Part shown: positions 22,804 to 26,375 of the stretch, piece by piece
Numbering within the stretch: position 1 is the first letter of the stretch
Layout of the letters: every line of letters begins with the position of its first letter
Assembly (NCBI GenBank): GCA_038110665.1
Contig: JAYNJY010000001.1
Coordinates: 1 to 39,683 of the forward strand
Origin: Rhodospirillaceae bacterium
GTDB lineage: Bacteria; Pseudomonadota; Alphaproteobacteria; Rhodospirillales; Casp-alpha2
Length of the DNA: 39,683 bases
Reading direction: 5' to 3'
Program-made: the position numbers and the translations under genes
Notes under the pieces: model-generated
Databases searched by the model: none
Told to the model about the DNA's origin: nothing
What the model saw: the letters and a program-made list of their open reading frames with translations, nothing else

Positions 22804-23370
22804 ATGCGACTCTTCAAGAACAGCTTGGCGGCCGTTGCGGTCGCCGCGGCGCTGATCGTGGGGCTCGCGTCCGCCCCCGTGCTGGCGCAGACCGTCACCG
22901 AACTACCCGGCCCGGAGCCGTCGGCGAAGATTCAGCGCGCCACCGGCAAGACCATCGACTTCTCGGGCGGCAACTCGACCACCACCAGCTACGACGTGTT
23001 CGACTTCGGCTTCACGTCCGATCTGGTCAAACTCTGCATTCTTCCCGGCAGCGCGACGGTGCATTTCCGTCTCGCCAACGCGGTGACGAACTCGCCGACG
23101 GCGATGGCCACCGCTCTCGCCGCGCAGCGTGCCACGGCGCCGATTTCAACCTCGGCAGCCTTCATTACCGGGGCCAACGTCTACGGCAGCGGCACCTTGG
23201 AGCGATCCTTGCCGCTGGCCACAGGCGTCATTTCCCCGGCTTCGGCGTGGACGCAGAACTCCGGCGGCTTCGGCAAGGAATGTACGGTGTTCCCCTTCCG
23301 CACGCCGGGCCTCGTGGCGCACGTCGTTTCTGGCATCGCGACGGTTGAAGCCTGGGCGGTTTCGCGCTAG
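22804..23370 (+). CDS. secreted protein (188 aa)
   Basis: GGAGGAAG SD. Signal peptide MRLFKNSLAAVAVAAALIVGLASAPVLA-QT. Confidence 0.65.
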   Translation: MRLFKNSLAAVAVAAALIVGLASAPVLAQTVTELPGPEPSAKIQRATGKTIDFSGGNSTTTSYDVFDFGFTSDLVKLCILPGSATVHFRLANAVTNSPTAMATALAAQRATAPISTSAAFITGANVYGSGTLERSLPLATGVISPASAWTQNSGGFGKECTVFPFRTPGLVAHVVSGIATVEAWAVSR

Positions 23371-23416
23371 GCTTCGTCCGTCCAGACGTTTTGCCTCCCT
23401 GAACGACCCCCAAACT

Positions 23417-23449
23417 GGCCCGGCGCTCCAACCGCCGGGCCTTTTTCTT
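23417..23449 (+). terminator. rho-independent terminator
   Basis: GGCCCGGCG (23417..23425), a 7-nt loop, CGCCGGGCC (23433..23441), then TTTTTCTT. It ends 8 nt before the TerL ATG. Confidence 0.7.
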
Positions 23450-23457
23450 GATCGGCC

Positions 23458-26079
23458 ATGAAGACCAACATCCTCGAACAGCAGCGCATCGCGTCCATGA
23501 CGACGCAGGAGATTTACCAGCAGGCGCTGCTGAACATGCTGCGCGACAAGCTGCAATTCTACCGGCCGTACCCGAAGCAGTTCGAGTTCCACTCGCTGGG
23601 CCTGACGAGCCGCGAGCGCCTGCTGATGGCGGGCAACCAGGAGGGAAAGGCGGGAAGGTTCGATGAGCCCGTTCTGACGCCGACCGGGTGGGTGGAAATA
23701 GGCAAGATCAAGGTGGGGGACGAAGTCATTGCCGGCGACGGCTCGGTGACGCGCGTGACGGGCGTGTTTCCTCAAGGGGTCAAGGATCTCGTCGAGGTCG
23801 AATTCTGCTACGGCACGAAGATTGTCGTCTGCGCGGACCATCTGTGGAAGGTCTTGAAGCCGGCGAATCGGTTCACGACGACGAGCCTTTCCTTGCCACG
23901 GAAGAAGGGCGAGAAGCGGAGAACAAGGCAGATTCCCAACCCGAAGTTCGGAGAGTGGTCGGTCGAGAGCACGGGGGTGATGCGCGCGGCCTACGGCGAC
24001 GCGCCCGCCCCCAAGTACCGCTATGCCGTGCCGGCCGTGGGGGCGGCTGAACTCGCCCCCCAAAGCGTTCCGATAGACCCTTACGTCCTGGGGCTTCTGC
24101 TTGGCGACGGTGGCCTGACGCACAATGTTTCGTTCACGACCGCAGACCAGGACATCGTGGATGCCATGGTGGCCGAGGCGGCTCGGTTTGGGTGCCGGGT
24201 GGCACCACGGCGGCCAATGCAGTACGCCGTTGTTGGCAACAGCGCCTTTCGGGAGGCGCTTCGTGGCCTGAATGTCGCGGGGAAGGGCGCTGCGGCCAAG
24301 CGCGTGCCGGAGGCATACCTGTGGAATGCGCCGGGAATCCGCCTCGCCATCTTGCAGGGGCTGATGGACACCGATGGGACGTGCGAAAAAAGCGGCGTGA
24401 CCAGTTTCACGTCGATTTCCCTCGGGCTGGCTGAAGATGTCGCGTTCCTGGTGCGCTCGTTCGGCGGCAAATGCTACATCCGAAGCCGCATCACGTCGTA
24501 CACGCACAAGGGTGAAAAGAAACAGGGGAGGCGGTCGTACACGGTCATCATCCGCCTGCCGCATGTGCCAATTTTCAGGCTGCGCAGGAAACTCGCGCGC
24601 TACATCCGGCCGACATCGACGTCCGACCATCACATCATCGTCGGATATCGGGACGCGGCGCCGGCCGAGGCGGTCTGCATCAGCGTCGCCCACCCGGACC
24701 GGACCTACGTCATGCGCGACTTCATCGTCACGCACAATTCGTTCTCCGGCGCCATGGAGATGGCCATCCACCTGACGGGCCGCTATCCGCCGTGGTGGCA
24801 GGGCCGGCGCTACCTGCGCCCGATCCTGGCCTGGACCGGCTCCGAATCGAACGAGACGTCGCGCGAACTGATCCAGTCGGCGCTGCTTGGCACGGAGACG
24901 CTCGACCGGATGCACCCCGACTTCGGCACCGGGGCGATCCCAGGCGAGTGCATCGTCGGCGTGACCTCGCGCTATGCCGGCGTCAAGGACGTGGCCGACC
25001 AGATCGTGGTGCGCCACGTCAGCGGCGGCTTCAGCCGCGTCATGCTGAAGGTCTACGAGCAGGGGTGGCAGAAGTTCCAGGGCAAGAAGGTCGACCTGGT
25101 GTGGCTCGACGAGGAGCCGCCGCAGTTCCAGATTTACTCGGAATGCCTGACCCGCACGCAGGCCGCCGAGCACGGGATGCTGTACCTGACCTTCACGCCG
25201 CTGCGCGGCACCACCGACGTCGTCAACCAGTTCCTGGAGAGCGACGGCGAGACGCGGGAGAACAACCAGAGCCGCGCCGTCGTCAACATGACGATCTACG
25301 ACTGCATCGGCGGTGTGTGGCCGGAAGGGACGCCGTTCGCCGGCCAGTCCTGGAAGGGCCACTACACGAAGGAGAAGGCCGAGGCCATCGTCGCGCAGTA
25401 CCCGAAGCACGAGCGCCGCACCCGCGCGCTGGGCGTGCCGATGATGGGCGAGGGCATGGTGTGGCCATTCGACCAGGAGGATTTCGTCGTCCCGGCGTTC
25501 AAGATTCCCAAGCACTTCCCGCAGATCGCCGGCTGCGACTTCGGCATCGACCACCCGTTCGGCTTCTGCACGCTGGCCTGGGATCGCGACAGCGACACCG
25601 TCTACCTGACCGGAAGCTGGCGCATCAACGGCCAGACGCCGGGCGGGCACTGCGACCTGATGCGCCGGATTTGCGACGACTGGATGCCCATCGCGTGGCC
25701 CCACGACGGCGACAACAAGGAGCGCGGCACCGGCGCCAAGCTGATCGCCAGCTACCGCGCGCGGCTGCACAATTTCCTGCCGTACAGCGCCCGCTACGAG
25801 AAGGACAAGGGCGGGCCGCAGCCGGTCGAGCCCATCGTGCTGAACGTCAGCGAGCGCATCCAGCAGGGCACGTTCAAGGTGTTCGAGCACTGCTCGGACT
25901 GGCTGGAGGAACAGCGGATGTTCCACCGCAAGGACGGCCGCATCGTTCCGAAAAAGGATGACGCGATCAAGGCGAGCCTGTATGCCTTGATGGAGTTGCG
26001 GCACGCCCGGACCAAGCCGGAGCCGCAGCCGATACGCCGTTCGAGGCCGATCCTGACGCAGTGGGGAGCGCCCGCCTGA
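23458..26079 (+). CDS. terL: terminase large subunit, intein-containing precursor (873 aa; 510 aa after splicing)
   Basis: Split Walker A GNQEGK/S, WLDEEPP Walker B-like motif, and a C-terminal nuclease-type region. Followed by portal, scaffold and capsid genes. Confidence 0.9.
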   Translation: MKTNILEQQRIASMTTQEIYQQALLNMLRDKLQFYRPYPKQFEFHSLGLTSRERLLMAGNQEGKAGRFDEPVLTPTGWVEIGKIKVGDEVIAGDGSVTRVTGVFPQGVKDLVEVEFCYGTKIVVCADHLWKVLKPANRFTTTSLSLPRKKGEKRRTRQIPNPKFGEWSVESTGVMRAAYGDAPAPKYRYAVPAVGAAELAPQSVPIDPYVLGLLLGDGGLTHNVSFTTADQDIVDAMVAEAARFGCRVAPRRPMQYAVVGNSAFREALRGLNVAGKGAAAKRVPEAYLWNAPGIRLAILQGLMDTDGTCEKSGVTSFTSISLGLAEDVAFLVRSFGGKCYIRSRITSYTHKGEKKQGRRSYTVIIRLPHVPIFRLRRKLARYIRPTSTSDHHIIVGYRDAAPAEAVCISVAHPDRTYVMRDFIVTHNSFSGAMEMAIHLTGRYPPWWQGRRYLRPILAWTGSESNETSRELIQSALLGTETLDRMHPDFGTGAIPGECIVGVTSRYAGVKDVADQIVVRHVSGGFSRVMLKVYEQGWQKFQGKKVDLVWLDEEPPQFQIYSECLTRTQAAEHGMLYLTFTPLRGTTDVVNQFLESDGETRENNQSRAVVNMTIYDCIGGVWPEGTPFAGQSWKGHYTKEKAEAIVAQYPKHERRTRALGVPMMGEGMVWPFDQEDFVVPAFKIPKHFPQIAGCDFGIDHPFGFCTLAWDRDSDTVYLTGSWRINGQTPGGHCDLMRRICDDWMPIAWPHDGDNKERGTGAKLIASYRARLHNFLPYSARYEKDKGGPQPVEPIVLNVSERIQQGTFKVFEHCSDWLEEQRMFHRKDGRIVPKKDDAIKASLYALMELRHARTKPEPQPIRRSRPILTQWGAPA
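23650..24738 (+). mobile_element. 363-aa intein (class 3 signature) with LAGLIDADG homing endonuclease domain
   Basis: Begins with Ala (AGRFDEPVLTPTGW...). Block B is GTKIVVCADHLW. LAGLIDADG motifs are LGLLLGDGGL and LQGLMDTDGT. Blocks F/G are AVCISVAHPDRTYVMRDFIVTHN, followed by Ser+1. Excision restores GNQEGKS. Confidence 0.8.
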
Positions 26080-26375
26080 TGGACGCATCGAAGTTCGAGA
26101 CCATCTGCCGCAAGAACGGTTTCAACCCGCTGACGCCGATCAACACCAGGCACGGCCGCGTCCTGGTCGCCGAGCGGTATTTCAACCATCATCCCGAGTT
26201 CGAGTGGCCGCACTGGCAGACGCTGTGGACGTTCGACCGTAACGGCCTCGACGTGGCGCAGAAGCTCTACTTCAAGTTCGGCGCCGCCTCGCAGGCCCGC
26301 CGGCGCGACGCCGCGGCAAAGGCCGCCGCCGCATGGGTGAAGGACAACCAGACCGTTGGCCGATACAAAAACTAA
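26079..26375 (+). CDS. hypothetical protein (98 aa)
   Basis: TGATG overlap with the TerL stop. Very high GC3. Confidence 0.65.
   Translation: MDASKFETICRKNGFNPLTPINTRHGRVLVAERYFNHHPEFEWPHWQTLWTFDRNGLDVAQKLYFKFGAASQARRRDAAAKAAAAWVKDNQTVGRYKN

Follow-up and report, generated by a model that had tools for sequence, protein, structure and literature searches.

A probable class 3 intein with a LAGLIDADG endonuclease in the P-loop of a P22-type terminase large subunit

The window, by which we mean the whole stretch of 39,683 nucleotides that was analysed, comes from an uncultured phage of approximately 40 kb with a G+C content of 65%, whose host probably belongs to the proteobacteria. It contains a gene for the large terminase subunit (TerL), with genes for a portal-like protein and a major head protein downstream. 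The TerL reading frame is split by an in-frame insert with the sequence features of an intein and of a LAGLIDADG endonuclease, which are summarized in Table 1. A search of the window for tRNAs, Rfam families and terminal repeats found none. An antisense open reading frame of 980 amino acids (23146..26088, minus strand) has no Pfam match, and we take it as a by-product of the GC3-rich coding sequence.

Table 1. Positions of TerL, the insert and their motifs in the window
Feature	Position	Strand	Details
TerL precursor ORF	23458..26079	+	873 aa, 98.0 kDa; end coordinate counts the stop codon
N-extein	23458..23649	+	64 aa, C-terminal end LLMAGNQEGK; collinear with the intein-free TerL P0001
Walker A, N-terminal part, AGNQEGK	23629..23649	+	Ser+1 (24739..24741) completes the motif after splicing
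Predicted class 3 intein with LAGLIDADG homing endonuclease	23650..24738	+	363 aa, 39.7 kDa; 1089-nt gap in the empty allele
Hint block A region	23650..23727	+	Ala1, non-nucleophilic
Hint block B, GTKIVVCADHLW	23812..23847	+	Aligned to class 3 DnaB inteins
Cys61 (B:7)	23830..23832	+	
His64 (B:10)	23839..23841	+	
Trp66 (B:12)	23845..23847	+	TGG
LAGLIDADG motif 1 (block C)	24082..24117	+	LGLLLGDGGL; acidic Asp153 at 24106..24108
Endonuclease block D, KRVPEAYL	24298..24321	+	Lys217 at 24298..24300
LAGLIDADG motif 2 (block E)	24343..24381	+	LQGLMDTDGT; acidic Asp242 at 24373..24375
Hint block F, AVCISVAHPDRTYVM	24670..24714	+	Cys343 (F:4) at 24676..24678, TGC, predicted branch nucleophile
Hint block G, FIVTHN	24721..24738	+	Thr361 (G:5), His362, Asn363 at 24730..24738; Thr361 codon 24730..24732, ACG
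C-extein	24739..26079	+	446 aa and stop; first residue Ser+1 (24739..24741)
Walker B-like LVWLDEE in C-extein	25096..25116	+	

The list of open reading frames and matches to the Pfam families Terminase_6N and Terminase_6C agree with the initial assignment of the 873-residue frame to TerL, and translation reproduces the length of 510 residues given for the ligated product. Spliced in silico, TerL matches Terminase_6N with E = 1.3e-21 and Terminase_6C with E = 5.4e-14, and has the layout of Terminase_6 (T4/P22)-type proteins, in which an ATPase domain with Walker A and Walker B motifs precedes a C-terminal RNase H-like nuclease. What remains of the ATPase domain lies in the C-extein together with the nuclease domain, which is matched by the nuclease domain of P22 TerL (4dkw, E = 5.8e-28). 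Exact in-frame removal of the insert restores this conserved host protein, as expected of an intein: the Terminase_6N match becomes longer (residues 56-311), crosses the junction and rises from 58.9 to 77.7 bits, a gain of 19 bits. The pattern [AG]xxxxGK[ST] then matches at residue 58 (A58-GNQE-GKS). The first-pass annotation was right that excision restores the Walker A motif, but the string that it quoted, GNQEGKS, has three residues between Gly and GKS (G-x3-GKS) and so falls short of GxxxxGK[ST]; the correct string is AGNQEGKS. Its Ser would serve at once as the P-loop Ser and as the predicted +1 nucleophile.

The translated insert consists of 363 codons without a stop, starts with AGRFDEPVLTPTGW and ends with DFIVTHN, and is flanked by LLMAGNQEGK and SFSGAMEMAIHLTGRYPPWW. 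An intein-free TerL from another metagenome (contig ERZ27247783 k141_392854, hereafter L001, encoding protein P0001) is 94% identical to that of the window in nucleotides and 96% in amino acids. The alignment of the two DNA sequences has a single gap of exactly 1089 nt, which confirms the proposed position and length of the insert and its splitting of the P-loop. The aligner set this gap at 23646..24734, a 4-nt ambiguity; at the codon level, the junction lies between Lys and Ser. Uninterrupted, the site in L001 reads AGNQEGK/SFSG, its sequence being CCGGCAACCAGGAAGGCAAG before and TCGTTCAGCGGCGCCATGGA after the junction, so that the insertion point falls between the invariant Lys and Ser of the TerL P-loop. 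Close TerL homologues collinear through the region would have spoken against an intein, according to the first-pass annotation; the relatives show instead a gap of exactly 363 codons.

Sequence searches with the insert found full-length intein homologues with E-values down to 3e-91, and 17,985 cluster representatives match it at E ≤ 1e-3, which places the identification as an intein far beyond chance. The AlphaFold2 (AF2) model of the insert has a mean pLDDT of 96.7 and a pTM of 0.93. The best Foldseek match of the model is PI-SceI (E = 3e-19, TM-score up to 0.73), and further matches are the TliVMA, PhoVMA, PI-PfuI and PI-TkoII inteins, I-DmoI and class 3 DnaB inteins. A profile search had been expected to return both a Hint and a LAGLIDADG domain. 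LAGLIDADG was indeed found, but the Hint and intein models of Pfam and NCBIfam gave sub-threshold matches only (Hom_end_hint, E = 0.046, 14.1 bits against a cut-off of 32.1), so a plain Pfam scan would return no Hint domain. The predicted Hint fold is instead indicated by matches to PDB sequences and by the modelled structure.

The PDB sequences matched are those of the solved class 3 inteins, DnaB-1 of M. chimaera (6rix and 6riy, E = 1.3e-8) and DnaB-1 of M. smegmatis (6bs8, E = 3.4e-7), with the HLW, Cys and THN residues aligned. Residues general to inteins are present in the form of the block B His64, the His362-Asn363 terminus and the nucleophilic Ser+1. In addition, the insert has the non-nucleophilic Ala1 and the triplet Trp66, Cys343 and Thr361 (WCT), the positions that define class 3 inteins (PMC2807308; PMC5050341), and their spacing from His B:10 and from the terminal Asn fits the published definition (PMC2807308). 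The three codons originally given for the triad read as stated. Among 111 homologues, His B:10, Cys F:4 and Thr G:5 are invariant, Trp B:12 and Ile344 are each kept in 108, and the +1 residue is Thr or Ser in 110; the homologue boundaries were chosen by the His-Asn pair, so its own conservation count is circular. Residue 1 is Ala in 96 of the 111, with Glu, Gly, Gln or Leu in the closest relatives. Cys343 aligns with the Cys of 6rix and 6bs8. The assignment to class 3 in the first-pass annotation is thus borne out by Ala1, the WCT triplet and Ser+1, by residue-for-residue alignment with the three solved structures and by near-invariance in the family.

Both LAGLIDADG motifs noticed initially were recovered with their acidic residues intact. 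The Pfam model LAGLIDADG_3 matches with 35.1 bits (cut-off 22.5; E = 1.6e-8), and I-DmoI and the nuclease domain of PI-SceI are among the structural matches, as expected of an enzyme with two motifs closed by acidic residues in an alpha-beta-beta-alpha-beta-beta-alpha double fold. Asp153 is kept in 106 and Asp242 in 110 of the 111 homologues, and Lys217, which we take to be the counterpart of the active-site Lys of PI-SceI, shows conservation of at least 90%. In the model, the nuclease domain has a pLDDT above 90. A candidate substrate for the predicted endonuclease is the empty site of L001. The window holds no other copy of an intein or of LAGLIDADG. The view that the intein is intact and mobile, taken already when the insert was first described, is consistent with these conserved residues and with the pair of occupied and empty alleles, and we adopt it as likely.

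We conclude that the element is, with a probability of roughly 0.9, a 363-residue class 3 intein with a LAGLIDADG endonuclease, inserted in frame between AGNQEGK and Ser of a P22-type TerL. Its likely splicing steps can be derived from the published class 3 pathway. With its P-loop split, the 98-kDa precursor is predicted to be unable to bind ATP. Cys343 (F:4) would attack the Lys64-Ala1 peptide bond, assisted by His64 and Trp66 of block B, to form a thioester branch, from which the N-extein would be transferred to Ser+1. Cyclisation of Asn363 with the help of His362 would free the intein (39.7 kDa), and an O-to-N acyl shift would yield active TerL of 58.4 kDa. In co-infections, the endonuclease of the free intein (Asp153, Lys217, Asp242) may cut intein-free TerL alleles, the repair of which would copy the intein in.

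The prototype of class 3 is the DnaB intein of mycobacteriophage Bethlehem (Tori et al., 2010; PMC2807308), and the same paper notes that inteins of this class occur in large terminase subunits and ATPase P-loops. The intein in the window shares with class 3 DnaB inteins a non-nucleophilic residue 1, the block B His with a Trp two residues on, Cys-Ile at F:4-5, the terminal Thr-His-Asn, Ser or Thr at +1, insertion in an ATPase P-loop and direct sequence similarity. However, its host protein is a terminase and not a helicase, and it has a full LAGLIDADG domain, whereas the solved DnaB inteins are endonuclease-free mini-inteins. Block F:8 is Ala in our intein, as in 34 of the 111 family members, in contrast to Asp in the DnaB inteins; exchange of this Asp for Ala in the MP-Be DnaB intein lowered splicing. 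Among TerL inteins of mycobacteriophages, TerL1-a lies at the P-loop between Lys and Thr, the 'classic' intein site in TerL, and TerL1-c, -d and -e are class 3 (Kelley et al., 2016; PMC5050341); class 3 inteins in TerL and Cas4 have also been described in actinobacteriophages (bioRxiv 10.1101/2025.01.02.630785). Our intein has in common with these inteins its location within the motor's ATPase domain, the 'classic' position between Lys and Thr or Ser of the P-loop, a LAGLIDADG endonuclease and the existence of occupied and empty alleles among related phages. It differs in that its host is a Terminase_6 (P22/T4-type) TerL from a high-GC phage, whereas the C-motif (site f) is the sole site reported in Terminase_6-type TerLs of mycobacteriophages, and inteins of cultured phages are at most 38% identical to it. 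The best structural matches, PI-SceI (the VMA1 intein), PI-PfuI, PI-TkoII and TliVMA, likewise have a LAGLIDADG nuclease nested in a Hint domain, but PI-SceI and the archaeal inteins belong to class 1 (Cys1) and have only 14-17% sequence identity to the intein in the window.

The intein and its exteins have different relatives. The nearest inteins (60-67% identity) occupy the same site after GK in TerLs with C-exteins that are 33-45% identical to that of the window, and hundreds of other TerLs carry homologous inteins at this position. TerLs with C-extein identities of 97, 77, 68, 64 and 55% all lack the intein, none of the best 120 extein matches is long enough to contain it, and in a neighbour-joining tree the extein is nested among 28 intein-free TerLs. 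The intein has a GC3 of 0.80, lower than the 0.94 of the extein (Fisher p = 4e-10), and the step coincides with the junctions. This contrast is consistent with a foreign origin and is no proof of it, as other genes of the phage have GC3 values of 0.66-0.90, a range that includes the intein. Because the closest inteins are found in distant TerLs at the same site, the best 120 TerLs are intein-free and GC3 changes at the junctions, the intein was probably gained horizontally, and its arrival in this phage lineage looks fairly recent, the source being a distantly related TerL occupied at the same position. The exteins show no co-conversion tract left by a distant donor. Divergence from L001 peaks in the N-extein, where 26 of 192 nt differ, and falls off downstream, and we considered whether it marks such a tract. 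We rejected this reading, since sequences upstream are generally more divergent; the residues specific to the window in the N-extein are also unlike those of intein-bearing TerLs. A scan of IMG/VR with the intein gave distant relatives only (31-37% identity), and a scan of 185,579 genomes with TerL found no close relative, with weak matches in proteobacterial MAGs only.

It is possible, though in our view unlikely, that the intein splices while its endonuclease domain is retained in an inactive or retargeted form, which would make it a vertically inherited passenger. Such a loss of mobility would fit the five positions at which the empty allele differs in the 20 nt on each side of the junction, and also the fact that searches did not find this exact intein a second time, the nearest one being 67% identical. 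Homing endonucleases in decay have usually suffered deletions or lost their acidic residues, and neither is seen here. Moreover, Asp153, Asp242 and Lys217 are conserved in a confidently modelled domain, the nearest TerL (94% nucleotide identity) is intein-free, and the extein tree points to a recent gain, all of which argue for a mobile element.

The metagenomic origin of the contig leaves room for two further readings. A dead intein, or an insertion that does not splice, would leave TerL inactivated and the contig that of a defective phage. This seems very improbable, as the insert ORF is uninterrupted, all residues known to be necessary for class 3 splicing are present and the neighbouring structural genes are intact; the exteins differ from L001 by 91 nucleotide changes, mostly synonymous, that give 21 amino acid changes, as purifying selection on the extein would produce. 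A chimera of TerL with unrelated intein-bearing reads might arise in a short-read metagenome assembly, but we regard it as extremely improbable for an insertion that is codon-precise, in frame and at the site used by homologous inteins in hundreds of TerLs. Two assemblies, SRR26337569 and SRR26337570, share the identical TerL-intein gene, which also disfavours an assembly artefact; the adjacent run accessions mean that these may not be independent samples. For an intein that does splice, a route other than the Cys343 branch could be envisaged, either direct attack by the +1 residue as in class 2 (KlbA-type) or a class 1-like reaction. Ala at residue 1 is found in KlbA inteins as well, but these lack the WCT triplet (PMC2807308). 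Given the diagnostic Trp, Cys and Thr, a Ser and not a Cys at +1 and the match to the solved class 3 inteins, such a route has very little likelihood, and we favour a class 3 intein that splices through Cys343.

We also speculate that splicing could be conditional, which would make it a post-translational timer of DNA packaging; the control might be exerted, for instance, by a reversible disulfide or a bound metal linking Cys343 with Cys61. Cys61 (B:7) adjoins the predicted catalytic His of block B, and B:6 or B:7 is occupied by Cys in 60-67% of the 111 family members. The related class 3 DnaB intein of M. smegmatis has been reported to splice in a redox- and zinc-sensitive manner. We consider such control improbable for the intein in the window; if true, it would mean that the intein is not purely a selfish passenger.

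Elements of this kind are common and well described. Published work already includes class 3 inteins from phage terminases and from P-loop sites between Lys and Ser or Thr, and there are approximately 18,000 matching cluster representatives, so the intein is ordinary and its scientific weight small: it adds one further member of class 3, from an uncultured high-GC phage, at the classic P-loop position of a packaging ATPase. The window and L001 nevertheless constitute a clean example of recent intein gain and a natural pair of occupied and empty alleles, with a defined substrate for homing and splicing assays. A gene annotated as 'terminase large subunit' in Elvirus carries a related intein; we set it aside as an example from a cultured phage, because records of related phages call their matches RNA polymerase beta subunit or helicase. 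Because Pfam reports LAGLIDADG only and the Hint domain is overlooked, TerLs of the type described here can be mis-sized or mis-annotated. Relatives in the same intein family are also present at the DxK site of PD-(D/E)XK (Cas4/RecB-type) nucleases.

We assign the insert in the TerL gene to a splicing-competent class 3 intein, with a probability of about 0.9. The ORF list and translation confirm the 873-aa TerL reading frame with a 363-aa insert described in the first-pass annotation, and coordinates are collected in the table. The intein product starts with AGRFDEPVLTPTGW and ends with RDFIVTHN, and is flanked by ...LLMAGNQEGK on the upstream side and SFSGAMEMAIHLTGRYPPWW on the downstream side. 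A search with the spliced extein retrieved a 510-aa, intein-free protein (P0001) with 96% identity, encoded on a 45.4-kb contig (L001) from another metagenome. Collinearity of close TerL homologues without a gap had been named as evidence against an intein; the two TerL genes are collinear at the DNA level apart from one gap of exactly 1089 nt, which favours the intein. The empty allele reads ...GGC AAC CAG GAA GGC AAG / TCG TTC AGC... (AGNQEGK/SFSG, with the slash marking the insertion point). The window and L001 form a natural occupied/empty allele pair with 94% nucleotide identity in the extein (91 differences, 21 of them amino-acid-changing). Across 15.8 kb the two phages share 72-88% identity, with a mean of about 83%. 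The TerL extein is their most conserved stretch, since the other aligned stretches are 72-88% identical.

Removal of the intein restores a Walker A motif, as initially proposed, but not the canonical GxxxxGK[ST] form, because GNQEGKS itself has only three residues between the glycines. The match in spliced TerL is A58-GNQE-GKS (pattern [AG]xxxxGK[ST]), which places the intein between the invariant P-loop Lys and Ser. In Pfam, both Terminase_6N and Terminase_6C match the C-terminal portion of the ORF; upon in silico removal of the intein the Terminase_6N score increases from 58.9 to 77.7 bits, with a match (residues 56 to 311) that spans the junction.

Features of the TerL locus and adjacent reading frames
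Feature	Coordinates	Strand	Evidence
Upstream gene, 128 aa	22404-22790	+	
Upstream gene, 188 aa	22804-23370	+	
Antisense ORF, 980 aa	23146-26088	-	
TerL precursor ORF, 873 aa	23458..26079	+	ORF list
Intein, 363 codons without stop	23650..24738	+	translation; exact 1089-nt gap in empty allele
Cys61, block B:7	23830-23832	+	translation
Trp66, block B:12	23845..23847		
Cys343, block F:4	24676..24678		
Thr361, block G:5	24730..24732		
Walker B-like LVWLDEE	25096..25116	+	motif match and translation

In class 3 inteins, by definition, residue 1 is not a nucleophile and co-varies with Trp B:12, Cys F:4 and Thr G:5; the Trp lies two residues past the block B His, and position +1 is Ser or Thr (Tori et al., 2010, PMC2807308; restated in Kelley et al., 2016, PMC5050341). 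All of these features are present in the TerL intein, and the triad codons had been placed correctly. Among 111 intein homologues with defined boundaries, His B:10, Cys F:4 and Thr G:5 are invariant, Trp B:12 is found in 108 (Phe in the remaining three) and Ala occupies position 1 in 96, while position +1 is Thr in 98, Ser in 12 and Cys in one. The best sequence matches with solved structures are the Mycobacterium class 3 DnaB mini-inteins 6rix, 6riy (E = 1.3e-8) and 6bs8 (E = 3.4e-7). Alignment to class 3 DnaB inteins pairs ...CADHLW with ...DAAHQW, and AVCISVAHPDRTYVM.RDFIVTHN with VRCVEVDNPAHLYLAGRGMVPTHN; therefore His, Trp, Cys, Thr, His and Asn all align. The published definition, these alignments and the homologues bear out the original assignment to class 3 with a WCT signature. 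The suggested HMM searches gave a mixed outcome, in that Pfam found LAGLIDADG_3 within the insert but its Hint models matched below threshold (Hom_end_hint, E = 0.046); NCBIfam gave weak matches to intein-containing proteins and nothing stronger.

An AlphaFold2 model of the intein, built from a 67-sequence alignment, has a mean pLDDT of 96.7 and a pTM of 0.93. The top Foldseek match in the PDB is PI-SceI (E = 3e-19, TM 0.65-0.73), and further matches include the endonuclease-bearing inteins TliVMA, PhoVMA, PI-PfuI and PI-TkoII, the free-standing LAGLIDADG enzyme I-DmoI, and class 3 DnaB inteins. The acidic residues that end the LAGLIDADG motifs are Asp153 (Asp in 106 of the 111 homologues) and Asp242 (110 of 111), and Lys217, in the KxVP block, shows a conservation of at least 90%. 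With these three residues conserved, no sign of nuclease degradation was seen, and the endonuclease is probably still active.

Following published class 3 chemistry, the 98.0-kDa precursor, with its P-loop split, should be inactive. A thioester branch would arise when Cys343 attacks the bond between Lys64 and Ala1, and the N-extein would then move onto Ser+1. Cyclisation of Asn363 would release the 39.7-kDa intein, and an acyl shift would yield 58.4-kDa TerL with the AGNQEGKS loop whole. The nuclease of the free intein would then cut intein-free alleles brought in by a co-infecting relative, which would gain the intein through repair of the break. We consider it improbable that splicing is conditional, one route being via Cys61. 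Class 1 inteins usually have Thr at the B:6/B:7 place where this residue sits; in the 111 family members Cys is found at B:6 in 67% and at B:7 in 60%, and both positions adjoin the catalytic His. We speculate that Cys61 may be a redox or metal partner of Cys343.

Several lines of sequence evidence suggest that the intein arrived horizontally, once and fairly recently, from a distant TerL relative, rather than having been precisely lost many times. The nearest inteins (60-67% identical; P0242, P0244, P0243, P0247, P0254 and others) occupy the same position after GK, in TerLs with C-exteins only 33-45% identical to that of the window. The TerLs nearest by extein (97, 77, 68, 64 and 55% C-extein identity) all lack an intein, and none of the best 120 extein matches is long enough to contain one. 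Neighbour-joining analysis of the spliced exteins places that of the window next to P0001, its sister, within a group of 28 TerLs that lack inteins, and all other sampled intein-bearing TerLs form a separate clade. GC3 is 0.94-0.97 along the extein and drops to 0.75-0.87 in the intein, in a step that coincides with the junctions; the means differ (0.94 and 0.80; Fisher p = 4e-10), although 0.80 is within the range of the phage's other genes. The extein has the highest GC3 among the window genes examined (0.94 vs a mean of 0.81). A donor-derived co-conversion tract was not recognisable in the exteins.

The nuclease half of TerL matches the solved nuclease domain of the P22 large terminase (4dkw, E = 5.8e-28), and genes for primase/helicase, portal-like and major head proteins lie around TerL; because of this resemblance and gene content, the window is the genome, about 40 kb long, of an uncultured phage. 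It derives from a 39,781-bp contig of Logan assembly SRR26337569, and an identical TerL gene is present in SRR26337570. The two genes directly 5' of TerL lie where a P22-like layout would put the small terminase, and encode proteins with signal-peptide-like N-termini (e.g. MRLFKNSLAAVAVAAALIVGLASAPVLAQ). Neither has a Pfam match, nor does the 188-aa protein have a PHROG match, and no small terminase was found. In L001 and L005, the corresponding positions hold ORFs of comparable length. The antisense ORF, which covers the entire TerL gene and has no Pfam match, most likely arises as a side effect of the very high GC3 of the sense frame. In its early region, the intein-free sister phage has genes for an MT-A70 family methyltransferase and for a protein with a weak DnaJ domain (L001:4857-5387), both absent from the gene calls of the corresponding part of the window contig.

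TerL is the commonest intein host in mycobacteriophages, where the Lys/Thr P-loop insertion is termed 'classic', splicing has been shown, and two TerL inteins were shown to cut intein-free partner alleles (Kelley et al., 2016). A 2025 preprint describes 293 TerL inteins in actinobacteriophages and a switch of class 3 TerL inteins to Cas4 nucleases via similar nucleotide-binding-site sequences (bioRxiv 10.1101/2025.01.02.630785). Homology searches found the same intein family after GK in TerL, PhoH, DnaB, SNF2-type and RecA-type ATPases, after DxK of PD-(D/E)XK nucleases and in a few further places, in agreement with this published picture. Of 1.84 billion cluster representatives, searched exhaustively, 17,985 match the intein at E <= 1e-3, and 3,836 still do so at E <= 1e-30. 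In contrast to mycobacteriophages, in which Terminase_6-type TerLs have inteins at the C-motif only (Kelley et al., 2016), the Terminase_6 TerL of the window has its intein at the P-loop. The intein is a new member of a well-known kind, and its distinctive features are modest: the allele pair and the host protein, a Terminase_6 (P22-type) TerL from a high-GC phage that probably infects proteobacteria.

Many intein-bearing TerL relatives are about 600 aa long and end directly after the ATPase domain (...FLPxxMRPxx; L017:6001-8704, P0121-P0132, P0141, P0184, P0192, P0203, P0208). In L017, a 2.17-Mb contig (JGI 3300059095), a gap of 112 nt separates the ATPase-plus-intein ORF from a distinct downstream ORF of 249 aa with Terminase_6C; therefore, this TerL seems to be split between two genes, unless they are joined by a frameshift or intron. 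Related TerLs have members of the intein family at two additional sites (P0276, P0279, P0281, P0282, P0284, P0286-P0288, P0290, P0296; P0293, P0297). One lies after ...SYDQGR and before TKWQAD, and the other, GNQ/CGKT, two residues upstream in the P-loop, where the inteins end in TRN and +1 is Cys. One relative, P0241 (1195 aa), appears to have two inteins, at the GK/ and YDQGR/ sites.
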